Below are positions 23,565-64,000 of a DNA stretch of 64,000 bases, piece by piece. The translations under genes and the position numbers were made by a program. Position 1 is the first letter of the stretch, and every line of letters starts with the position of its first letter. Below the pieces are notes generated by a model. The model did no database searches and had not been told where the DNA came from. It worked only from the letters and a program-made list of their open reading frames with translations. The DNA comes from Brevundimonas sp. (GTDB lineage: Bacteria; Pseudomonadota; Alphaproteobacteria; Caulobacterales; Caulobacteraceae): positions 38,822 to 102,821 of the forward strand of contig NZ_JAQSDK010000033.1 in the NCBI RefSeq assembly GCF_029945885.1. The letters run 5' to 3'.

Positions 23565-24590
23565 ATGAGTTATTTCGCTATTGCCTTGGTGGTTCTGGCC
23601 TTTGTGCTGCTGTTCAGTGTGGTCAAGATCGTGCCGCAAGGCCGTGAATTCACAATCGAACGCTTCGGTCGCTACACCCGGACCTTGAAGCCCGGCATCA
23701 CCTTCCTGGCCCCGTTCATCGAGCGCACGGGCCGCCGCATGAACATGATGGAGCAGGTCCTGGACGTGCCCCAGCAGGAGGTCATCACCAAGGACAACGC
23801 CATGGTGAAGGTCGACGCCATCGTCTTCATCCAGGTGATGGACGCCGCCGCCGCGGCCTACCGGGTCGAGAACCTGCCCTATGCCATCACCCAGCTGTGC
23901 TCGACCAATCTGCGGACCGTGGTCGGCTCGATGGACCTGGATGAGGTGCTGTTCCAGCGCGACAACATCAACTCGCGCCTGCTGACCGTGATCGACGCCG
24001 CCACCGAGCCGTGGGGCGTCAAGGTCAACCGGATCGAGATCAAGGACCTGACCCCGCCCGTCGACATCACCAATGCCATGGCCCGCCAGATGAAGGCCGA
24101 GCGCGAACGCCGGGCCGTGATCACCGAGGCCGAGGGCGAGAAACAGGCCGCCATCGCCCGCGCCGAGGGGGCCAAACAGTCGGCCATCCTGCAGGCCGAG
24201 GGCCGCAAGGAGGCCGCCTCGCGCGACGCCGAGGCGCGTGAGCGTCTGGCCCAGGCCGAGGCCAAGGCGACGGAAATGGTGTCCAACGCCATCGCCGCCG
24301 GTGACGTCAACGCCATCAACTATTTCGTGGCCCAGAAATACGTCGAGGCCTTCGGCGAACTGGCCCGCAACCCGACGGCCAAGACGGTCATCGTTCCCGC
24401 CGAAATGGGGGCCCTGGTCGGCTCCATCGCCGGTATCGGCGAGCTGGTCGGCATGGCCCGTGGCCAGCAGGCGTCCCGGGTCGAGGCCCGCCGTGAGCCG
24501 GCACCGGCACCGACCACCACCCGGTCGGCCCCGCCGGCCCAGACCCGTGCCCCGCGCCGCCCCGGCGGTTCCGTGCCGACAACGGAGTAG
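23565..24590 (+). CDS. SPFH/stomatin-like protein (QmcA/YbbK type)
   Basis: N-terminal [38 protein letters not shown]. Confidence 0.93.
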
Positions 24591-53359: not shown

Positions 53360-54961
53360 TCAACGAATGGCCTGCCGGTCGCCCAGCAGAACGGGGATGG
53401 TGACCAGCATCACCCACAGGTCCAGCCACAGCGACTGGCGTTCGATATAGTCGATGTCCAGCTGCACGCGGCGGCGCACGTCCTGGGCCGAATGCAGCGG
53501 TCCGCGCGAGCCGTGGATGGCGGCCCAGCCGGTCATGCCCGGCTTGATGCGGTGACGATGGGCGTATTCCGCCACCAGTCGCGCCGATTCGATATGGCCG
53601 GTCTTCATGCCGATCGCATGGGGGCGGGGCCCGACCAGCGACATCTCGCCCTTCAGCACATTCAGCAGCTGCGGCAGTTCGTCGAGACTGGTGGACCGCA
53701 GGATGCGGCCGATCCGCGTGACCCGGTCGTCATCGGCCGTGACCTGGCGCGACGCGGTGGCGTCGGCGGTCTCGGGCCGCATCGAGCGGAATTTCCACAC
53801 CACGATCTCTTCCTGGTTGAAGCCGTGGCGGCGCTGGCGGAACAGGATCGGGCCCGGGCTGTCGAGCCGGATGGCCAGGGCGACCAGCGCCATCACCGGG
53901 GCCAGCAGCACCGTGGCCGTCAGGCCGACGATCAGGTCCTGCAGTCGCTTGTGAAAAGCGCGGCGCTCGTCGTCGACCGGCCCGTCCAGCTGGGCCAGCG
54001 AGGTCCGGGCCAGCCGGTCGACCGCCTTGCCCCAGTCGGCATCGGCCGGTTCGACCAGCAGGGTCACCTCATTGGGCAGGGTCCGCAGCCGGGTGGTCAG
54101 ATCGCGCACCCGCGCCTCGGCCTTGGGATCGATGGCCAGCACGATCCGGTCGACATAGGGGGTCATGTGATGGGTCAGCAGGTCGTCGGCCCGGCCCAGC
54201 ACCGGCACGCCGGCGATGGCGCGCGGCGACCGGGCCAGCCGGTCGTCGAAAATGCCCAGCACATTGAGGTCACGCCGCGTCAGGGCCTCGCGGATCAGGC
54301 CTTCGGCGTGGCGGGTGGCCCCGACCAGGACGATGCTGGGCGTCAGGGCCCCCGAGGCGCGCCAACGGCCGACCAGATCGCTCCAGCCGATATGCAGGCC
54401 GTTCAGACTGATCAGGATCAGGCCGGTCCAGACCAGATAGGCTGACCAGGGGGCGGCGGCCCCGCGCATCAGGGCCCCGACGCCGATCGTGGCGGCGGCC
54501 CCGGCCAGGGTGATTGCGGCCACCGCGGCCAGGTGCAGGCCGACGCGATGACTGCGGGTGAACCGGTACAGGCCCAGCGACCGCATCATGGCCAGCACGG
54601 CCATGCCGCCGGCCACGAAGGGCAGGACCTGCCACAGCCGGGCCTCGGCCAGGGATCCGGGCACGGCGGCCCAGGCACACAGCAGGCTGACCGCGATCAC
54701 CGCCAGCACGTCGAAGGCGCGGAAATAGTGGACCGCCAGCCGGGCCGTGTGCCGCTGGCGGGCATTCAGCCAGACCCCGGGCCGGAACGGGCCGCGCCGG
54801 GCAGCCCCGTCGGCGTCGATGCCGGCATCGCCGTCCCCGTCACCGTCGGGGGTCAGGGCGGCTCCGGCCAGGGCCTGGAGACCGGCCGCGTCCAGCGTCG
54901 CCGGCTCGCCGGACGGCGAGGACGATCGGGCCGGCGAACGGCTGCGGACGGCTTGGGTCAT
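53360..54961 (-). CDS. hfsE: Priming undecaprenyl-phosphate sugar transferase
   Basis: KFRSM, DDDRVTRIG, SLDELPQL, VGPRPH, KPGMTGWA motifs. Confidence 0.92.
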   Translation of the reverse strand: MTQAVRSRSPARSSSPSGEPATLDAAGLQALAGAALTPDGDGDGDAGIDADGAARRGPFRPGVWLNARQRHTARLAVHYFRAFDVLAVIAVSLLCAWAAVPGSLAEARLWQVLPFVAGGMAVLAMMRSLGLYRFTRSHRVGLHLAAVAAITLAGAAATIGVGALMRGAAAPWSAYLVWTGLILISLNGLHIGWSDLVGRWRASGALTPSIVLVGATRHAEGLIREALTRRDLNVLGIFDDRLARSPRAIAGVPVLGRADDLLTHHMTPYVDRIVLAIDPKAEARVRDLTTRLRTLPNEVTLLVEPADADWGKAVDRLARTSLAQLDGPVDDERRAFHKRLQDLIVGLTATVLLAPVMALVALAIRLDSPGPILFRQRRHGFNQEEIVVWKFRSMRPETADATASRQVTADDDRVTRIGRILRSTSLDELPQLLNVLKGEMSLVGPRPHAIGMKTGHIESARLVAEYAHRHRIKPGMTGWAAIHGSRGPLHSAQDVRRRVQLDIDYIERQSLWLDLWVMLVTIPVLLGDRQAIR

Positions 54962-55089: not shown

Positions 55090-55181
55090 GGAGACGTGGC
55101 CGAGTGGCTTAAGGCAACGGTTTGCTAAATCGTCGTACCCTGTAAGGGGTACCCAGGGTTCGAATCCCTGCGTCTCCGCCA
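55090..55181 (+). tRNA. tRNA-Ser(GCT)
   Basis: 92-nt class II cloverleaf GGAGACG...TTGCTAA...long variable arm...GGTTCGAATCC...CTCCGCCA. Confidence 0.97.
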
Positions 55182-55406
55182 GAACCCTATAAAAAGGGGT
55201 TTCATAACAACATCTTGCTTGTTGCGGGTGGTAACCTCCCTAAATATGACCCTAAAGATGGGTCGGCTGGTAGTCGTAGCGACCCACCGCTCGATACGCG
55301 CCTGCGTCGCACCCGACTGGCCTCGCACTGGACATCGATCTCGTCACGCTTCGCCCGGTGGGGCGGTCAAACGATAACTTGTCTCCACCGAAGCGGGGCG
55401 CTGCTG

Positions 55407-56765
55407 TCAGACTGCCGCGCTGTGGCGCTTCGGGGCGGTGATGGAGCGGTTGTCGAAACAGGCGGCGACGACCCGGACGAGCCGACCCATGGCGTGCGGT
55501 ATGCGGAGACGGCGGCCATCGATCCGGCACAGGCCGTCGGCCTGCAGGGCCCGGGCGGCCTTGATGGCCGGGTCGAGCGCCGAGACTTCGCGGCCGTGGT
55601 CCAGGCATACGGCCCCCACATCGACCTGGAGATCGCACATCAGTCGCTCGATCACGGCCCGGCGCAGGCGGTCGTCTGACGTCGTTTCCAGCTGGCGGCC
55701 GACAGGCAGCTGCCCTGCCGCGATGTCGGCCGTCCAGTCGTCGACCCGCAGTCTGTTCTGGGCATAGGCATAGGGCAGGCTGCTGATCGCCGACGGGCCC
55801 AGCCCGATCAGCACCGCGGACGGATCGTCCGTATAGCCCTGGAAGTTCCGATGCAGGCTGCCCTCGGCCAGGCGGGCGGCCATGGAGTCACCCGGGCGGG
55901 CATAGTGGTCCATGCCGATACGGACATAGCCGTGCGCCGCCAGCACCGCCTCGGCGGCCTCGGCCTGGGTCCAGCGACCCGATCCATCGGCCAGGTCCGC
56001 GTCGCGGATGACCGCCTGGTGCTTCTTCATCCACGGCACATGGGCATAGCCGAACAGGGCGACCCGATCGGGTTCCAGCGTGAGTGCGGTCTCCATGCTG
56101 GCCGTGACATTCTCCGGGGTCTGGCCCGGCAGGCCGTACATCATGTCGAAATTGATCGCATCGATCCCGCCGCCGCGCAGGGCCTGGACGGCCGTGGCGA
56201 CCTGTTCAGAGGGCTGTATCCGGTTGACCAGGCGCTGGACCTCCAGATCGAAGGTCTGCACGCCCAGGCTGGCCCGGGTCACCCCTGCCGCGCCCAGACC
56301 CCGGGCGAAGTCGCCGTCCAGGGTGCCGGGATCCAGTTCCACGGCGACCTCGGCACCGGGACGCAGGCGGAAGCGTCCGGCGAGGAGGGCCAGCAGTCCG
56401 GTGAAGTCGTCGGTGTTGAGGCTGTTCGGACTGCCGCCGCCGAAATGCAGATGAGCCGTGCCGGCATGGGCGGGCAGGGCGTCGCCCCACAGGTCGATCT
56501 CGCGTTTCAGCTGGTCGAGGAACCGGGCGACCCGCGCATAGCCATTGGGCACGCTGGTATGGCAGCCGCAGTACCAGCACAGCCGCTCACAGAACGGGAT
56601 GTGGACATAGATCGACAGGGTGTCGTGCGACTGGATATCGCCCAGCCAGCGGCGGAGGTCCGCGTCATCCGTTGCCGGCTGGAATGCCAGGGCCGTGGGA
56701 TAGCTGGTGTAGCGTGGCAGGGCGCGGGTCGCGTGGCCCAGCAGACGGTCGGACAGGGGAGTCAT
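55407..56765 (-). CDS. hemN: Oxygen-independent coproporphyrinogen III oxidase
   Basis: PRYTSYPT, CERLCWYCGC radical SAM motif, RNFQGYT. Confidence 0.95.
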   Translation of the reverse strand: MTPLSDRLLGHATRALPRYTSYPTALAFQPATDDADLRRWLGDIQSHDTLSIYVHIPFCERLCWYCGCHTSVPNGYARVARFLDQLKREIDLWGDALPAHAGTAHLHFGGGSPNSLNTDDFTGLLALLAGRFRLRPGAEVAVELDPGTLDGDFARGLGAAGVTRASLGVQTFDLEVQRLVNRIQPSEQVATAVQALRGGGIDAINFDMMYGLPGQTPENVTASMETALTLEPDRVALFGYAHVPWMKKHQAVIRDADLADGSGRWTQAEAAEAVLAAHGYVRIGMDHYARPGDSMAARLAEGSLHRNFQGYTDDPSAVLIGLGPSAISSLPYAYAQNRLRVDDWTADIAAGQLPVGRQLETTSDDRLRRAVIERLMCDLQVDVGAVCLDHGREVSALDPAIKAARALQADGLCRIDGRRLRIPHAMGRLVRVVAACFDNRSITAPKRHSAAV

Positions 56766-57343
56766 AGCGTCATCGCCTCCGCATGAGCGAGGTCATCAGG
56801 CGTGTTGATGTTGAGGAAGGGATCCCGCGGGTCGATCGGCCAGTCGACGATGACGCGGCCGGCCGCCTCGCTTAGACCGTTCAGGGACAGCCGTCCGTTC
56901 CCGGCGCGCTGGACGAGAACGGGCAGGGTGGTGGTGCGCCACAGGGCACATATCGGATGCAGTCGCCCGCCGCTGGCGGCGACGGCGACCGCGACGTCAT
57001 CCTTCAGGGCCTGATCGAGCCGGGCCAGAAGGTCAGGGGGCAGGAATGGCATGTCGCACGGGATAGTGAGCACGCGATCGGTGCCGTTGAGGTCAGCCCA
57101 TGCCAGAGCCGAGGCCAGACCGCCAAGGGGGCCGGGAATGTCGGGGTCGTCAAGGATCACCGGCGCCAGCACATTGCTGACCTGTGTCGGGTTGCGCAGG
57201 ACCAGGACCACCGGGGCAGCCCATCCGTGGGCTGCTTTCAGCGAATGGGTCAAAAGGCGGCTCCCGGCGAGGGGCCTGTCCGGCTTGGCCCCGCCGATCC
57301 GCTGCCCGTCCCCGCCGGCCAAAACTGCCGTGACGATACTCAT
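56762..57343 (-). CDS. mobA: Molybdenum cofactor guanylyltransferase
   Basis: LAGGDGQRIGG, GPLGGL, PCDMPFL, FLNINTPDDL. Confidence 0.93.
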   Translation of the reverse strand: MSIVTAVLAGGDGQRIGGAKPDRPLAGSRLLTHSLKAAHGWAAPVVLVLRNPTQVSNVLAPVILDDPDIPGPLGGLASALAWADLNGTDRVLTIPCDMPFLPPDLLARLDQALKDDVAVAVAASGGRLHPICALWRTTTLPVLVQRAGNGRLSLNGLSEAAGRVIVDWPIDPRDPFLNINTPDDLAHAEAMTL

Positions 57344-58011
57344 GATGGCCGACCCTTGCCCGCGGCTCGCGACCGCGATCGCGGTTTGGGGCAGACAGGC
57401 TCAAGACGGCTGACGTCGTCGGGACCCGTGACCGTGGTCTCCATGTCCCGGACCAGACCGTCGCGAATGGAGTAGATCCAGCCATGGATCGACAGGGGCT
57501 GACCCCGTTTCCAGGCGTCGGTGATAAAGGGGTTGCGGGACAGGGCGCGGACCTGGGCCAGCACGTTCTTCTCGCAGATGAAATTGATCCGCGCCTCATG
57601 ATCCTGGATGGCCGCGAGTTCGTCGTCATGGTCCTCGCACAGCCGTTGAACGCGCTGCATCCAGTGGTCGAGGATCCCGTGGCGCTGCCCGTCGAGCACG
57701 GCCCGGACGCCGCCACAGCCATAGTGGCCGCAGACGATGATGTGGCGAACCTTCAGCGACTCGAGGGCGAACTGCAGGACGGCCAGCAGGTTCATGTCCT
57801 GGGCGGGGGCCAGGTTGGCGACGTTGCGATGGACGAACAGTTCGCCGGGTTCCAGACCGACGATCTCATTGGCGGGAACGCGACTGTCCGAACAGCCGAT
57901 CCAGAGATATTCGGGCGACTGCTGCGCCGATAGCCTTCGGAAAAACTCCGGATCGATCCGGGCCTTGGCCGATGCCCATTTGAGATTGTTTCGAAGGAGG
58001 TCCTCGATCAC
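57340..58011 (-). CDS. can: Beta-carbonic anhydrase
   Basis: CSDSRV, HRNVAN, HYGCGG motifs. Confidence 0.95.
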   Translation of the reverse strand: MIEDLLRNNLKWASAKARIDPEFFRRLSAQQSPEYLWIGCSDSRVPANEIVGLEPGELFVHRNVANLAPAQDMNLLAVLQFALESLKVRHIIVCGHYGCGGVRAVLDGQRHGILDHWMQRVQRLCEDHDDELAAIQDHEARINFICEKNVLAQVRALSRNPFITDAWKRGQPLSIHGWIYSIRDGLVRDMETTVTGPDDVSRLEPVCPKPRSRSRAAGKGRPS

Positions 58012-58598
58012 GGCGTCGCTCCCGCCGATCCGGGGCCATCCGGTGGGAACGCAGGATCAGGGCTGTCCAGGAATACCCCCCGTCGGGCCGCCATCCGGGT
58101 GCTGAGGGCGTGCAGGTCCCGGGGTGTCAGGCGCAGGCGCGCGATCGGCAGGATGACCGCATTTTCCAGCGCGATATGGCGACGCTCGTGCAGGGCGAAA
58201 TCCGTGAACAGGCGGCGCGTTTCCAGATCATGACCCGGTGGTTGCCCCGCGATCAGCGCCCGTTCCAGCAGGGTGCCCAGGGTCCGGGTCTGCTCCATGT
58301 CGTCGCGATGCTCGGCCGACAGCGCGCCCAGCAGGGGGCCGAGTTCATCTTCCGGCAGGCAGCGACGGCGCAGCAGGGGGAACAGGTCCTCTTCCTCGTC
58401 GATGACGTGAAGGGCCATGTCGTGGCGCAGGAAGGTCAGAATTTCCTCCGCCTCCTCGCGCAGCAGCACGGTCGCGGTGCCGACGCGCTCGATCAGGCGG
58501 CACAGCTGACGGTGGCGATAGTGTTCAGCGAACAGCCAGTTCAGCGGTTCGTGAGCAAGGCCCGCGGGCAGGGGCTCGATCTGAGGTGTCTGGCTCAT
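58008..58598 (-). CDS. Hemerythrin-domain protein
   Basis: EH...HVIDEEEDLFP...EH...HERRHIALEN di-iron pattern. Confidence 0.88.
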   Translation of the reverse strand: MSQTPQIEPLPAGLAHEPLNWLFAEHYRHRQLCRLIERVGTATVLLREEAEEILTFLRHDMALHVIDEEEDLFPLLRRRCLPEDELGPLLGALSAEHRDDMEQTRTLGTLLERALIAGQPPGHDLETRRLFTDFALHERRHIALENAVILPIARLRLTPRDLHALSTRMAARRGVFLDSPDPAFPPDGPGSAGATP

Positions 58599-58629
58599 CC
58601 GGAATGACCTTGTTGCCCCGCCATGACAT

Positions 58630-59856
58630 CTAGAACCGGTATTCCGCAGCGACCCAGACCTTGGTGCGATCGGGGAAGGCGACCTGGGCACCGTCGAAGC
58701 GGGCGGCCTTGATCTCGATGGCCCGACGCGGGTCCAGAACCAGCCGGCCCGACAGGTCGAGCTCCTGGCCGTATCGGCTCGATCCGTCGGCGTCGCGAAT
58801 ATCGTGCCAGGAGGCGGTCAGCGTGGCGCTGGTTCCGACGGGCGGGTGGGCGATGGCATGGCTGACCGTGGCGGACACATCGCGCAGCCCGTCCCCGGGC
58901 GTATTCAGGAACACATCCGCCCAGCCCTGGAAGGCGTGCAGGGTCGCCAGCGGGGTCTGGAAGGCCCGGGTTCCGTTGCCGTCCATCCGCTCTACGGCCA
59001 GGGTGCCTGTCAGAGACCCGCGCTTCAGGCCCGCGGAGACCAGTCCGTAGTCCAGGTCGAAGCTGGCGGGATTGCTGCCGTAGTCAGACTGGCGCGCATA
59101 GTCGACGGCATACAGGGCCGACCAGTCGGCAGACAGGGCGTGGCTGCCCTCCAGTCGCGCGCCCCAGGTCGCCGAGGATTGGGCCGGAGCATTGGAGAAA
59201 TCGAGCAGATAGCCATAGGCCGTCAGCTTTCCGACCGGAGTCGGGGCCTCGACATTGATCAGGTGACTGTCGGAATTCCATTCCCCGACGGGGCTGTCGT
59301 TCCCGAAGATCCGGTGGACCCGATCGATCCAGACATAGGTCACCGTCATCGGCTTCAGGGTGCGGGTCGTCACCTTGACGGCGTCGAACGTCTGCTCGTT
59401 CTGACGGAAGCCGACATTGCCGACGAAGCGGGCGTTGCCGAGAATGATGCGCTGGCGGCCCAGGACGACCTCGGTGTCCGGGAGGCCGGTCCAGGTCAGC
59501 TGCAGGCGGTTCAGTTCAATCCCTTCCGGGTCGGCCACCACCGGATAACTGGCCGGACCGTGGATGGTGTCATTGTAGTCGTCGACCAGGGCCACGACCC
59601 CCTCACCCTCGACCAGCAGTTTGAACCCTGACCAGTCCGGGCTCTGCCAGCCAAGGCGCGCGCGGAGTGTTACGGCCGTGGCATCGTCAAGCCCGTCCTG
59701 ACTGACCCCCTCGTAGCGCAGGCGGCTGTCGAACAGGATGTCGCCCGCTTGCGTCGAGGCGACTGCGGGGCCGGTGGCCGGGGTCTGGGCATGGGCCATG
59801 GCGGGGGCTGCCGCCAGGGCCAGGGCCAGCAGGGCGGGGCGGGAAAGGGTCTTCAT
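58630..59856 (-). CDS. Outer-membrane beta-barrel (alginate-export/AlgE-like family)
   Basis: Signal peptide; GRQRI, RFVGNVGFRQNEQTFDA; C-terminal EYRF beta-signal. Confidence 0.8.
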   Translation of the reverse strand: MKTLSRPALLALALAAAPAMAHAQTPATGPAVASTQAGDILFDSRLRYEGVSQDGLDDATAVTLRARLGWQSPDWSGFKLLVEGEGVVALVDDYNDTIHGPASYPVVADPEGIELNRLQLTWTGLPDTEVVLGRQRIILGNARFVGNVGFRQNEQTFDAVKVTTRTLKPMTVTYVWIDRVHRIFGNDSPVGEWNSDSHLINVEAPTPVGKLTAYGYLLDFSNAPAQSSATWGARLEGSHALSADWSALYAVDYARQSDYGSNPASFDLDYGLVSAGLKRGSLTGTLAVERMDGNGTRAFQTPLATLHAFQGWADVFLNTPGDGLRDVSATVSHAIAHPPVGTSATLTASWHDIRDADGSSRYGQELDLSGRLVLDPRRAIEIKAARFDGAQVAFPDRTKVWVAAEYRF

Positions 59857-59857
59857 C

Positions 59858-60970
59858 TCAATTTCTCCGGATGAGGGTGAAGGTCTTCACCGGCACCGTC
59901 AGTTTTGATTTCAGGATCGCCCGCACGCAGGCCAGCGCCGGATCACCGGAGCCCTGGGCAGCCGAGATCAGTCGGGTCCAGCTTTCGTCGCCGGCACCCT
60001 GGGCAAAGTTGGAAATCTCTCGCTGAACAAAGGTCGCGAATCCGATCCCGGCCGCTTCAGCGACTTCACGGGCCCGGGTGGCCAGGGCCGGATCGGCCTC
60101 GTCCAGCCAGGTCTCGAGTCGGGCCGCGACGGCCGCCTGGTCGTTCAGGAGGTCCCCGAGGGACAGGGCCCCGTTGGACACGGTGCCGTCGATGGTGACG
60201 CTGAGCGCCACGCCGCGTTCCCGGGCTTCGGCCGCAAGTCCGGACACATAGCGGGTCGCCGCTGCGGTCCAGGCGCGGCTTTCCAGATGGAGGGAGATCT
60301 GGGGCTGGACGTGTTCGAACGGCAGCCGTTGGCCATCGATCCGCCGGTCGAGGCGCAGGATGTGCCAGCCGAAGCGGGACTGGACCGGTTCGGTCGCTGT
60401 CTCGCCGGCCAGGAGCCTGTCCAGTCCGGCCTCGACCTCGGGGGCGAGATCCCCGGGCGAGAGTTGGCCGAGAGAGCCTCCGACTCCCTTGGACGGGCAG
60501 TCCGAGAGTGAGGCCGCCAGGGCCGCGAACCGCGACGGATGTTCAGCCAGTTCGGCAATGGCCGCCAGCGCGATCTCCCGGGCATCGGCCCAGGCGGCGT
60601 CGTCGGCACCCTTGGGCGCGCACAGGATGTGGGAGGCCTGGGTCAGCCGGGGTGTCCGGAACCTGTCCGGCGCGCCGTCATAGACCCGGCGACATTCGCT
60701 TTCGTCGGGGCGCTCGACCGTGATCTCGGCGTCGAGAACGGCGCGGACGAGGGCTTCTTCCGGCGTCTCTTCCCGACCGTCATCGTCCAGCTCTGCCTCG
60801 GCCTGCAGACCCAGTTGATGCGCCCGATCCAGCAGCAGGGCCTTGATGGCCAGGGCATGAGCGGCCGCGTTCCGGGCCGCCTCAGCCGTGGCGGCCGGGT
60901 GGTTCTGGGCCTCCTCGGCGACGAGACGCTCGGGGAGTTCCACCCCGTCGACAACGATGACGGCGTTCAT
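59858..60970 (-). CDS. PpiC-type peptidyl-prolyl isomerase (NarM/NifM-like) with extra C-terminal domain
   Basis: ASHIL, SDCPSKGVGGSLG, SRFGWHI; ATGA overlap with narI. Confidence 0.88.
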   Translation of the reverse strand: MNAVIVVDGVELPERLVAEEAQNHPAATAEAARNAAAHALAIKALLLDRAHQLGLQAEAELDDDGREETPEEALVRAVLDAEITVERPDESECRRVYDGAPDRFRTPRLTQASHILCAPKGADDAAWADAREIALAAIAELAEHPSRFAALAASLSDCPSKGVGGSLGQLSPGDLAPEVEAGLDRLLAGETATEPVQSRFGWHILRLDRRIDGQRLPFEHVQPQISLHLESRAWTAAATRYVSGLAAEARERGVALSVTIDGTVSNGALSLGDLLNDQAAVAARLETWLDEADPALATRAREVAEAAGIGFATFVQREISNFAQGAGDESWTRLISAAQGSGDPALACVRAILKSKLTVPVKTFTLIRRN

Positions 60971-61686
60971 TTGATGCGCTCCGCGGTACGGCGGGTCACC
61001 GGCATCGGGCGCTTGCTGCGCACCAGCTGCCAGCCCCGGCGGTTGAGGTACCAGACCGGTGCCGACAACATGTGGACCAGCCGGGTGAACGGGAAGACCA
61101 GCAGGATAGTCAGGCCGAGGGTGATGTGGGTCTTGAACACCCAACTGACGTCGGCAACGAAGCCGGCGCTGTAGGGGTTGAAGGTGAAAATGCCTTGGGC
61201 CCAGCTCATGAATTTGATCATTTCAGAGCCGTCCCGGTGTCCCAGCGACAGCGGTATGGTCGCCAGTCCCAGGCACAGCTGCACCATCAGGATCACCAGG
61301 ATGGCGATGTCGCCGAAGCTGGAGGTGTTGCGGATTCGCGGATCAAACAATCTCCGGTGCAGCAGCAGCAGGCCTCCGGCCAGGCAGAAGACCCCGGCGA
61401 CACCGCCCGCGACGATGGCCAGCATCTGTTTGAAACTGTGGGTGACCCCGAGGAAGTCCCATACGGCGACCGGCGTCAGCAGGCCGACGAAATGGCCGCC
61501 GAAGATAGCCAGGATGCCGAGGTGAAACAGCACCGAGCCGAGCATCAATTGCTTGCGCCGAAGCAGCTGGGACGATCCGGTGCGCCAGGTGTATTGCTCA
61601 CGGTCGAACCGCAATACCGATCCGATCGCCAGCACAGCCATGGCGACATAGGGGTAAACCCCGAACGCGATGAAATTCAGGTCCAT
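60967..61686 (-). CDS. narI: Respiratory nitrate reductase gamma subunit
   Basis: YPY, WRTGSSQLL, LFHLG, PFTRLVH motifs. Confidence 0.97.
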   Translation of the reverse strand: MDLNFIAFGVYPYVAMAVLAIGSVLRFDREQYTWRTGSSQLLRRKQLMLGSVLFHLGILAIFGGHFVGLLTPVAVWDFLGVTHSFKQMLAIVAGGVAGVFCLAGGLLLLHRRLFDPRIRNTSSFGDIAILVILMVQLCLGLATIPLSLGHRDGSEMIKFMSWAQGIFTFNPYSAGFVADVSWVFKTHITLGLTILLVFPFTRLVHMLSAPVWYLNRRGWQLVRSKRPMPVTRRTAERIK

Positions 61687-61697
61687 GACGGAAATCC

Positions 61698-62414
61698 TCA
61701 GGCAGCCGCGCCGGAACGGCGGCTCTTTTCTGGCGGTGGGGCGGCGTTCATCGCGGACAGGATGGAATCGGCCTTCGGACAGCCGACCTCTCCAGGTCCG
61801 AAGCTGACGGCCGTTTCTTCCCAGGACTTGTCGAGCGCCTCGAGGTCGTCTGGGTCCTCGTCCGGCTCCTGCATCAGGGCCGCTACGGCGTCGGTGTCGG
61901 GCACCGCATCGGCCAGATTCGACAAGGCTCCGAAGACGGCGCGATAGGGACTATCCCGCTTGTGCAGCCGCTCGGTCAGGGCGGCCAGCACGTGGGCCCC
62001 TTCACCAAGCAGGGAGGCCGCTTCAGCGTCCGGCAGGGTGGACAGGAAGTCCAGGAAGACCGGTAGGTGATCCGGCAGTTCCTTGGCCGACAGCTCGAGC
62101 CCGTAGGAGGCGTAGAGCTCGACCAGGGCGGCCATGGCCTGACCCCGGTCGCGGCTTTCACCGTGGATGTGTTCGTACAGGTTCAGAGACAGCGACCGGG
62201 TGCGGTCGAACAGCTGCACGAACCCCTCCTGCAGATCATAGAGATCGTCGTGTTCCAGCATCCCGGCCAGTTTCTCCAGCGACCGGACGATCGGATCGGG
62301 GACCAGGCCTTCGTTGCGGATGGCGTCGATGGCCTCGGGGGCGGCGGCCTGGATCTCAGCGGTCGGATAGCTGAGCATGAGCGCGAGGGCGCGATAGGTC
62401 AGGGCCATGATCAA
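61698..62414 (-). CDS. narJ: Nitrate reductase chaperone
   Basis: LFDRTRSLSL, GESRDRGQAM, ELPDHLP; start TTG 62414 or ATG 62408. Confidence 0.96.
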   Translation of the reverse strand: MIMALTYRALALMLSYPTAEIQAAAPEAIDAIRNEGLVPDPIVRSLEKLAGMLEHDDLYDLQEGFVQLFDRTRSLSLNLYEHIHGESRDRGQAMAALVELYASYGLELSAKELPDHLPVFLDFLSTLPDAEAASLLGEGAHVLAALTERLHKRDSPYRAVFGALSNLADAVPDTDAVAALMQEPDEDPDDLEALDKSWEETAVSFGPGEVGCPKADSILSAMNAAPPPEKSRRSGAAA

Positions 62415-63934
62415 GCCACCTCTGCTGTGGGTTTGGCGCGTGAGCGCTTGTCAGGCCCGAACAGGCCCAGCTCGGTGCGGCCGCCGGAGCAGCCGTTGCC
62501 GAAGGTGAAGCCGCAGCCGCCCCGGATGTCGAAGGAGTCCTCGGCGGTCTCTCGGTGGGTCGAGGGGATGACGAAGCGGTCCTCGTAATCGGCGATGGCC
62601 ATGATCTTGAACATGTCGTCGATCTGCGCCGCGGTCAGACCGACCTTGGCCGCGAGGGTGTGGTCGATACGACCGTCGATGGTCTTGGCCCGCATGTAGG
62701 CCCGCATGGCCAGCATCCGCTGAAGCGCCAGCGTCACCGGGGCCTCGACGCCCGCCGTCAACAGGTTGGCGAGGTATTTGACCGGGATGCGCAGCTTGTT
62801 CACGTCCGGCATTTCGCCGTCCATCTCAAGCGCCCCGACGGCCGCCGCGTTCTGGATCGGCGACAGCGGCGGCACGTACCAGACCATCGGCAGGGTCCGG
62901 TATTCGGGGTGGAGCGGGAAGGCGATCTTCCAGTCCATGGCCATCTTGTAGACCGGGCTGCGTTTGGCCCCCTCGATCCAGGCATCGGGCACGCCGTCAG
63001 CCCTGGCCTGGGCGATCACCGCCGGATCGTGCGGATCGAGGAAGACGTCGAGTTGGGCCTGGTAGAGGTCTTTCTCGTCGACGCTCGCGGCCTCGCTGAT
63101 GCGATCGGCGTCATAGAGCAGCACCCCCAGATAGCGGATGCGTCCGACGCAGGTTTCGGAACAGACGGTCGGCTGGCCGACCTCGATGCGCGGGAAGCAG
63201 AAGGTGCATTTCTCGGATTTGCCCGAGTCCCAGTTGTAGTAGATTTTCTTGTAGGGGCAGGCCGAGACGCACATGCGCCAGCCACGGCATTTGTCCTGGT
63301 CGATCAGGACGATACCGTCTTCTTCCCGTTTGTAGATCGCGCCTGAGGGACAGGCCGCGACGCAGGTCGGATTCAGGCAGTGCTCACACAGCCTGGGCAG
63401 GTACATCATGAAGGTGTTTTCGAACTCGCCGTACATCTCCTTTTCGATGTCGGCGAAATTGTAGTCCTTGGACCGCTTTGCGAACTCGCCGCCAAGGATT
63501 TCCTCCCAGTTTGGACCCCATTCGATCTTCTCCATCCGCTGGCCGGTGATGGCCGAGCGCGGACGAGCGGTGGGGAAATGCTTCATCTCCGGCGCGGTCT
63601 GGAGATGAGCGTAGTCGAAGTCGAACGGCTCGTAATAGTCGTCGATCTCGGGCAGGTCCGGGTTGGCGAAAATCTTGGCCAGGATGCGCCATTTCGGGCC
63701 CATCCGCGGCTCGATGTCGCCGTTCTTCTTGCGCCGCCAGCCGCCGTTCCAGCGTTTCTGGTTTTCCCAGTCCTTGGGATAGCCGATGCCGGGCTTGGTC
63801 TCGACGTTGTTGAACCAGGCGTATTCAACGCCCTTTCGGCTGGTCCAGACGTTCTTGCAGGTGACGGAGCAGGTGTGACAGCCGATACATTTATCGAGGT
63901 TCAGCACCATGCCGATCTGGGCGCGGACCTTCAT
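62411..63934 (-). CDS. narH: Respiratory nitrate reductase beta subunit
   Basis: LDKCIGCHTC, CEHCLNPTC, CRGWRMC, CTFCFP Fe-S motifs. Confidence 0.99.
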   Translation of the reverse strand: MKVRAQIGMVLNLDKCIGCHTCSVTCKNVWTSRKGVEYAWFNNVETKPGIGYPKDWENQKRWNGGWRRKKNGDIEPRMGPKWRILAKIFANPDLPEIDDYYEPFDFDYAHLQTAPEMKHFPTARPRSAITGQRMEKIEWGPNWEEILGGEFAKRSKDYNFADIEKEMYGEFENTFMMYLPRLCEHCLNPTCVAACPSGAIYKREEDGIVLIDQDKCRGWRMCVSACPYKKIYYNWDSGKSEKCTFCFPRIEVGQPTVCSETCVGRIRYLGVLLYDADRISEAASVDEKDLYQAQLDVFLDPHDPAVIAQARADGVPDAWIEGAKRSPVYKMAMDWKIAFPLHPEYRTLPMVWYVPPLSPIQNAAAVGALEMDGEMPDVNKLRIPVKYLANLLTAGVEAPVTLALQRMLAMRAYMRAKTIDGRIDHTLAAKVGLTAAQIDDMFKIMAIADYEDRFVIPSTHRETAEDSFDIRGGCGFTFGNGCSGGRTELGLFGPDKRSRAKPTAEVA

Positions 63935-63999
63935 TGGGCTGGCTCCTTGGCCTGAGAAAAGTCGCCGAGCGGCTCGTCGAGCCAGTCGACCTTGGTCAT
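63931..63999 (-). CDS. narG: Respiratory nitrate reductase alpha subunit, 3' end only
   Basis: ...MTKVDWLDEPLGDFSQAKEPAQ* with ATGA overlap onto narH. Confidence 0.85.
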   Translation of the reverse strand: MTKVDWLDEPLGDFSQAKEPAQ

Positions 64000-64000
64000 C

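Follow-up and report, generated by a model that had tools for sequence, protein, structure and literature searches.

Among genomic islands of the P4/CP4-57 type, CP4-57 of Escherichia coli is located at ssrA and carries IntA and AlpA, the Yersinia HPI is located at an asn-tRNA gene, and ICEMlSymR7A of Mesorhizobium at a phe-tRNA gene; in the textbook examples of tRNA islands the integrase gene mostly lies beside the intact tRNA gene. In Caulobacter crescentus NA1000, Marks et al. reportedly described in 2010 a mobile element of 26 kb that is located at a serine tRNA gene, has the end of this tRNA as a direct repeat, and carries capsule and buoyancy genes. The NCE of Thermus thermophilus is a mobile nar operon with its own oxygen and nitrate regulators and transporters, which has a patchy occurrence among strains, enables an aerobe to respire nitrate, and has been described as part of a transferable megaplasmid region (PMC5748679, PMC7694296). 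The tycheposons of Prochlorococcus are cargo elements found at a few tRNA genes, where they form composite islands with niche-defining nutrient genes (10.1101/2020.12.28.424599).

The DNA considered here is a stretch of 64,000 nucleotides (the window; contig C33:38822-102821) from a Brevundimonas draft genome (G000; 3.13 Mb, 67.8% GC, 37 contigs), and its positions 55159 to about 55361 can be assigned with considerable confidence as the attL of a tyrosine-integrase genomic island in the 3' end of the single tRNA-Ser(GCT) gene. The island resembles those of the P4/CP4-57 type in having a tyrosine integrase with a DUF4102-type arm-binding N terminus and an AlpA-family partner, in having integrated into the 3' part of a tRNA gene so that the tRNA is regenerated and its end recurs as a short direct repeat at the far border, and in its arm-type repeats and metabolic cargo. 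It differs from most of the textbook cases in that the integrase gene occupies the far end, at attR, where it adjoins the displaced tRNA fragment and is read toward the interior of the island, and from the cited P4/CP4-57 examples in that the cargo serves anaerobic respiration and no conjugation genes were seen in the ORFs scanned. The mechanism matches that of the known P4/CP4-57 class and no new mechanism is revealed. With the NA1000 element, as reportedly described, it shares the bacterial order, a serine tRNA gene, and a direct repeat of the tRNA end, but nitrate respiration takes the place of the capsule and buoyancy cargo. As in the NCE, a nar module is present on horizontally mobile DNA and is patchily distributed; however, the Brevundimonas island is integrated at a tRNA gene with a P4-type integrase, its host is of a different phylum, and the module bundles in addition Moco synthesis, mod transport, UbiTUV, NrdJ, HemN, and RIC. 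Compared by description only, the tycheposons are likewise cargo-carrying, tRNA-integrated, and built up as composites, but they have other recombinase and replication modules, are much smaller, and carry nutrient-acquisition genes as opposed to a respiratory chain (10.1101/2020.12.28.424599). A literature search found no description of this Brevundimonas island.

The tRNA-Ser(GCT) gene at 55090–55181 (plus strand; ARAGORN; Rfam RF00005, 56.4 bits) is intact and constitutes the bacterial part of attL together with the regenerated 3' end. It is the only credible tRNA-Ser(GCT) gene in the genome; a second ARAGORN call (C2:78538-78629) corresponds to GC-rich, coding-like sequence with no similarity to the real gene and is probably a false positive. 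To its left, the minus-strand gene for a Bac_transf sugar transferase (53360–54961; Pfam PF02397, E = 7e-61) is the end of a holdfast/polysaccharide cluster. A homolog of this gene adjoins tRNA-Ser(GCT), itself 92–99% identical in 18 genus genomes, in 16 of the 18 same-genus genomes examined, and the sugar-transferase side is therefore conserved chromosome. To the right of the tRNA, all window genes are on the minus strand, beginning with hemN (55407–56765), so that positions 55182–55406 are a spacer between the 3' ends of the two genes. As a separate observation, genomes G009 (C158:1-3167) and G007 (C11:29465-41556) have tRNA-Ser(GCT) in inverted orientation with respect to the conserved flank with the sugar transferase gene, and in G007 a 5.5-kb insert separates the two, which suggests integrase-mediated or repeat-mediated inversions at this locus.

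An earlier note on the window, made from its sequence, had taken the spacer for the border of an integrative element on account of an abrupt AT-richer tract after the CCA and a pair of CCCTAAA motifs. Both features hold: the GC content of the first 80 nt past the CCA is 42.5%, compared with 67.8% for the genome, and CCCTAAA-N5-CCCTAAA is present at exactly 55238–55256. The pair extends to an 11-nt repeat, CCCTAAA[T/G]ATG, which occurs twice at a spacing of 12; with two mismatches allowed, 0.02 such patterns are expected per window. CCCTAAA itself has these two copies only in the 64-kb window and 30 in the whole genome, both strands included. The two tandem arm-type repeats, CCCTAAATATG and CCCTAAAGATG (55238–55260, plus strand), are marked by their rarity, by a twin on contig C15, and by equivalents in a related element, and are putative sites for the N-terminal arm-binding domain of the integrase. 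The interval that had been proposed as the border, 55182–55406, is composed of two parts: the att arm, which is the AT-richer, element-derived P' arm of attL, accounts for about 175 nt (55187 to approximately 55361) and has no match in relatives, but the last ~45 nt (55362–55406, minus strand), past the hemN stop codon, are shared with other genomes and are already part of the cargo module, at its hemN terminator end.

The same note had proposed a search beyond position 64,000 for a duplicate of the tRNA-Ser 3' end, matching repeats, and an integrase. All three exist, but on contig C15 (23.3 kb, 63.8% GC), and the two halves of the island are joined by inference; neither a PF00589 match nor a second att copy was found on C33, the part beyond position 64,000 included. 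The att core or direct repeat TTCGAATCCCTGCGTCTCCGCCAGAACC (55159–55186, plus strand; C33:93980-94007), which consists of the 3' end of tRNA-Ser(GCT) and GAACC, recurs as TTCGAACCCCTGCGTCTCCGCCAGAACC at C15:21984-22011. The two agree at 27 of 28 nt, the last 21 (55166–55186) being exact, and an exact 15-mer is common to the tRNA 3' end and the C15 copy. At ≤6 mismatches the 28-nt repeat has exactly two copies genome-wide, in the window and on C15. An arrangement of tandem islands was considered and set aside, as the assembly contains no third, internal att copy at this threshold.

The integrase gene on C15 (C15:20619-21803, minus strand) is intact, encodes 394 aa, and has its start codon 180 bp from the C15 repeat. 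The protein has Pfam domains Arm-DNA-bind_3 (PF13356), Phage_int_M (PF22022), and Phage_integrase (PF00589), an NCBIfam PRK09692-type integrase domain, and PDB matches to CP4-like integrase domains; the catalytic residues R..K..HxxR..W..Y are complete, and the motifs TACRTGE, MKGKTEHRVPL, HGFRSTFRDW, and RAYRR are found in its translation. It is a tyrosine integrase of the P4/CP4-57 type that has an arm-binding domain. The twin of the window repeats, CCCTCAAATTGACCCTAAA, lies at C15:21844-21862, between the start of the integrase gene and the core, and matches CCCTAAATATGACCCTAAA of the window at 16 of 19 positions on the same strand; GACCCTAAA occurs in the 3.1-Mb genome only in the window repeat and in this twin. 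An AlpA-family gene (C15:17085-17294; Phage_AlpA PF05930, E = 2.3e-12), which is adjoined by a gene for an HTH_17 protein, likely encodes an excision or directionality factor. The part of the P arm from the arm repeats to the core (C15:21880-21985) also contains five or six same-strand TGGAC/TAGAC motifs, at positions that are kept in the P arm of the related element in G053 (L073:10690-10795); these may be sites for a host factor, AlpA, or the core-binding domain of the integrase.

Comparison with relatives identifies the bacterial side of each junction. In same-genus genomes, the bases past the CCA are mostly of the type GAA(C)CTTCCC (GAACCTTCCC..., for example GAACCTTCCCG in G017). In G000, this native type follows the C15 copy (GAACCTTCCCGAAC...; GAACCTTCCCG), and tRNA-Ser(GCT) is followed by GAACCCTATAAAAAGGGG..., which is not the native flank. 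Integration predicts this arrangement, with attL composed of the tRNA and an element arm and attR of an element arm and native downstream DNA. Sequence other than that of the window is present past tRNA-Ser in the 18 genus genomes, and blastn of window 55182–55800 against 276 genus genomes returned no match to the first ~175 nt, the matches beginning only at hemN or its immediate 3' flank. The earlier note would have taken its reading as refuted if relatives without nar had the same spacer and no second att site or integrase were found; the spacer was found in 0 of the 276, and it is not a conserved feature of the tRNA locus. A search of the same 276 genomes with the P' arm for the same island found none. 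The second tRNA 3' end, the twin arm repeats, the intact integrase, and the native flank at attR thus bear out the island end that had been proposed at tRNA-Ser.

The right-hand flank is less simple. In G014, G001, and G005, a region of the type at the start of contig C20 is found within ~1–6 kb past tRNA-Ser, from which the C20 start is judged to be the conserved right flank, separated from the tRNA in G000. OmpW, which lies to the right of attR, was considered as the ancestral neighbor of tRNA-Ser; it is located elsewhere in relatives, the C20 start being found instead, and the right flank therefore has its own history.

In the mechanism proposed, the P4/CP4-57-type integrase would have recombined attP with the T-loop/acceptor 3' segment of the tRNA gene, so that a complete tRNA was regenerated at attL and the native 3' end came to lie at attR (C15:21984-22011). 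Contact with the core would be made by the catalytic and core-binding domains of the integrase, and its N-terminal arm-binding domain would bind both the tandem CCCTAAA-type repeats of the P' arm, ~57–75 nt past the CCA on its 3' side, and the P-arm repeats on C15, ~120–140 nt 5' of the core. The AlpA-family protein (C15:17085-17294) would act as the excision or directionality factor, and the island may still be mobile. Its order would be the attL arm, the 32-kb nar module, a ~5-kb CsgG-like cluster, ~16 kb of lower-GC cargo, the remnant integrase, AlpA, and two recombinases, the integrase, and attR.

This order requires that C33, with attL, be connected to C15, with attR. There is no direct 55-mer overlap between the end of C33 and the start of C15, and the connection is made through a collapsed repeat. 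C33:126673-128756 and the reverse of C8:1-2087 are 94.9% identical, and the 55-mer at the terminus of C8 is the same as C33:128702-128756; the collapsed repeat therefore begins there and has two entries, the body of C33 and reversed C8. Contigs C15 and C33 have their first 55 nt in common, and in G115 and G201 the homolog of this shared 55-mer is located ~1.1 kb past that of the C33 end, indicating that the repeat ends there with two exits, into C15 and into the start of C33. Because reversed C8 is directly upstream of the C33 start in the three closest genomes (G253, G254, and G256), the chromosomal path is C8, repeat, C33 start, which leaves C33 tail, repeat, C15 for the island. This suggests one composite island of ~60 kb (~59.7 kb), made up of C33:94008-130633, ~1.1 kb of unassembled sequence, and C15:1-21983, an extent that assumes exactly two copies of the collapsed repeat.

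The repeat responsible for the contig break is a ~5-kb cluster encoding a CsgG-like lipoprotein, an SdrD_B-like protein, and proteins without assignment, which occurs twice in G000, at C33:126673-130633 and from C8 to the C33 start. One copy is in the island; the two are 95% identical over the first 2 kb and the rest is collapsed in the assembly. As a direct repeat with copies ~130 kb apart, it could lead to deletion of the intervening DNA. The cargo on C15 comprises ~16 kb of lower GC content with a MacAB-like ABC export system and a TonB receptor; adjoining the TonB-dependent receptor gene is an ORF for a 392-aa protein (C15:13949-15127, plus strand) in which an N-terminal HTH_17 domain of the excisionase type is fused to a citrate-synthase-like domain. 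A frameshifted and N-terminally truncated remnant of a second P4-type integrase (C15:16094-16649, plus strand), 47–65% identical in protein sequence to the G053 integrase, is followed by AlpA and then by an HTH_17 Xis-like gene (L002:6288-6488), suggesting that an older element was fused into the island. Between the AlpA/Xis genes and the island integrase are two tandem tyrosine recombinase genes (C15:17585-20385, plus strand; 585 and 348 aa, with a 4-nt overlap) that resemble a "recombinase in trio" with two members only. The integrase remnant and the extra recombinases are signs of accretion.

Among ~60 ORFs scanned on the assembled C33 tail and C15, Pfam searches found no genes for conjugation, a relaxase, a coupling protein, or virion components, several ORFs being without a match. 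Type IV secretion and relaxase genes are therefore probably absent, and the element is classed as a genomic island or possibly a mobilizable element, as opposed to an ICE or a prophage. At the end of C15 (L002:11867-12336) and at C4:283618-284800 there are small genes for GIY-YIG nucleases, enclosed by the REP-like repeat CTGTCGTCATCCTTCGGCGAGCGCC...; such units are found again at several contig ends and, in G053, ahead of the C20-like flank, and form a family of dispersed repeats by which the assembly is fragmented.

The cargo adjoining attL is a module for nitrate respiration. Its first gene beside the border, hemN (55407–56765, minus strand; Pfam Radical_SAM and HemN_C), encodes an oxygen-independent coproporphyrinogen III oxidase (NCBIfam TIGR00538 equivalog, 365 bits against a cut-off of 325) and is the last gene of the nar transcription unit. 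The earlier statement that the cargo begins with the nar operon needs correction, as transcription runs toward the tRNA and it is the last gene that abuts the border. Further along the minus strand, 56762–64000 contains mobA and genes for a β-carbonic anhydrase, a hemerythrin-domain protein, a β-barrel porin-like protein, and a PpiC PPIase, followed by narI, narJ, and narH (Pfam), the last being cut by the window end. Past the window, as far as C33:126158, are narG, two copies of narK, ftrB (an FtrB-type CRP/FNR regulator), moaA, modABC, nnrS, a chorismate mutase gene, ubiV, ubiU, ubiT, nrdJ, ytfE/ScdA, moeA, mog/moaB, moaE, and a PLP-decarboxylase-like gene. The narG ORF encodes 1273 aa and has relatives at 83–86%; the two NarK-like genes are of the MFS type, and narG, narH, narJ, and narI occur together with a nitrate/nitrite transporter, the composition of a Nar cluster.

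The module measures 32 kb (C33:94183/94226-126158) and starts at about 55362 in the window. Other genomes have nar modules with which homology starts no earlier than C33:94183-94226 (window 55362–55405), that with G253 and G252 reaching C33:94183 and 94198 and that with G256 and G254 stopping at the hemN stop codon. The ends of the module are identical but its flanks different in G256, G252, G254, G253, and G008, with other flanks also in G180, and it occupies at least five other genomic contexts within the genus. G256 has a block 87% identical to the G000 module; on one side of it is an aldehyde-dehydrogenase-like gene that matches G000 C35:20188 and on the other the 3' end of tRNA-Ser(CGA), and the orientation of the block relative to the tRNA is the opposite one. 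In G008, it is contained in a 33-kb insert flanked by the 15-nt direct repeat TTCAGAATGTCGAAT (C1:121107-121121 and 154416-154430), a site that is single and uninterrupted in G000 (C2:~345075-345089). In G008 the insertion falls at the stop codon of the gene that lies upstream of gmk. Beside the left copy of TTCAGAATGTCGAAT is a stretch that is AT-rich and arm-like, and no integrase was seen inside the insert.

Presence of narG in 9 of 41 sampled genus genomes, and the location of the nar region elsewhere in relatives, accord with the view of it as island cargo, and the island explains the patchy occurrence of nitrate respiration in Brevundimonas. The GC content of the module is 66.2%, against 67.8% for the genome, and its 87% identity to the G256 block resembles that of flanking core DNA; its composition is therefore not foreign, and it may have been moved about inside the lineage. 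Circulation within the genus is more probable than a distant origin, and from the comparison of its ends the module appears to be a discrete promoter-to-terminator unit that has been repeatedly relocated. A tentative proposal, for which the case is suggestive but falls short of even, is that this 32-kb module is a portable "anaerobiosis cassette," combining Nar, NarK, FtrB, Moco synthesis, Mod transport, UbiTUV for O2-independent ubiquinone synthesis, a B12-dependent RNR, HemN, RIC, and NnrS, which moves as one unit among Brevundimonas in different integrative elements and converts a strict aerobe into a nitrate respirer by a single acquisition. Its carriers would be the tRNA-Ser(GCT) island, the G008 insert with the 15-nt repeat by gmk, and, in G256, the hotspot at tRNA-Ser(CGA). 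The island provides a concrete vehicle for a whole anaerobic-lifestyle gene set, with a mapped att site, an integrase, and candidate arm sites.

The mobility of the module bears on the most serious alternative, according to which attL is genuine but the nar module was not brought by this integrase. It would have arrived separately, by nested insertion or by intragenomic rearrangement between island-rich tRNA-Ser loci, and the island would now be a fixed, non-excisable relic. The module has sharp ends of its own that are identical in six genomes, the island integrase does not accompany it in relatives, it adjoins tRNA-Ser(CGA) in the sister genome G256, and its divergence is about that of the core; the presence in G000 of another island of the same integrase family at tRNA-Ser(CGA), described below, and the signs of accretion on C15 fit the same history. 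However, if the contigs have been joined correctly, the module now lies between attL and attR, and its first nucleotides come immediately after the ~175-nt arm, where cargo is usually found. An intact integrase and AlpA, with 21-nt core copies that are identical, are likewise a poor match to long decay. Separate arrival is accordingly regarded as unlikely, though it deserves serious attention, and delivery of the module as cargo of the tRNA-Ser(GCT) island is preferred.

An alternative that discards the island altogether takes 55182–55406 as an ordinary spacer between convergent genes, containing the terminators of the tRNA and hemN together with chance repeats and hairpins. The interval does separate the 3' ends of the tRNA and hemN, its final ~45 nt are indeed hemN 3' sequence, and small hairpins are present: GACCC/GGGTC at 55248–55264, which had been listed among the border features in the earlier note, and GAACCCT/GGGGTTT directly past the CCA. 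The spacer nevertheless folds no better than shuffled sequences (z = −1.16), no canonical terminator or promoter was called in it, and the tRNA was the sole match in an Rfam scan, so that the hairpins are real but carry no statistical weight. Further, an ordinary spacer would hardly be absent from 276 of 276 genus genomes or contain so rare a repeat pair with its twin beside an integrase and a tRNA fragment, and this reading is judged very improbable. It is just as improbable that C33 is chimeric at the tRNA and the adjacency of tRNA and nar an assembly artifact, for although the 37-contig draft has repeat-induced breaks and the two tRNA-Ser genes share stretches of 13 and 9 nt, these are far below the 55-nt assembly overlap, and P' arm repeats that match the C15 P arm, in a layout that matches the attL of G053, are not expected of a chimera.

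The interpretation of the locus as one end of a tRNA-Ser(GCT) island is aided by a related element that is contained whole on a single contig. Relatives of the integrase place G000 in Brevundimonas. The closest of them, at 86% identity, is encoded in the Brevundimonas MAG G053, where tRNA-Ser(GCT) (228–320) is followed by GAACC, arm repeats AACCCTACGAGTGACCCTAAAAGG at approximately +57 to +80, and 23.5 kb of unrelated cargo; to the right are the minus-strand integrase gene, arm repeats AACCCTCAATTGAACCCTAAAGAG, ~130 nt, and a core copy at 23794. A homolog of G000 C20:131-1327 is found ~3 kb past this core copy. The arm repeats of the two elements are at equivalent distances in both attL and attR, and the single T/C difference between the repeat copies (window 55165) is the same in the G053 element, from which strand exchange is inferred to occur 3' of 55165. 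In both elements GGATACGCA precedes the attR core, and this 9-mer is a near-perfect inverted copy of TGCGTCTCC, which suggests that GGATACGCA and TGCGTCTCC are the core half-sites, with the exchange point 3' of the T/C position. G053 has two tRNA-Ser(GCT) genes that are 80% identical (L072:228-320 and L074:224-315). The divergent copy is the attL of its island, and the canonical copy is beside the sugar transferase gene and is followed by AT-rich, foreign-looking DNA at the contig end; G053 may thus contain a tandem island array with a spare tRNA.

Relatives of the integrase at 43–86% identity have the same arrangement, in which the integrase start is followed by tandem short repeats, ~150 nt, and a short tRNA 3' fragment, so that location of the integrase gene at the attR end is general for this subfamily; this should be useful for island-finding software. 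The attL and attR sites, Int, and AlpA of the present island form a clean, testable system in the Caulobacterales. A second island with an integrase of the same subfamily is present in G000 at tRNA-Ser(CGA): it measures 13.9 kb (C35:58544-72555), its integrase (C35:58705-59889) is 46% identical to that of the tRNA-Ser(GCT) island, and it has two tandem copies of the arm repeat CACACCCAT and a 16-nt repeat of the tRNA end at C35:58544. With a length of ~16 nt, this tRNA-end repeat was missed in a search with 28-mers and found with 12-mers. An IS3-like fragment lies beyond it.
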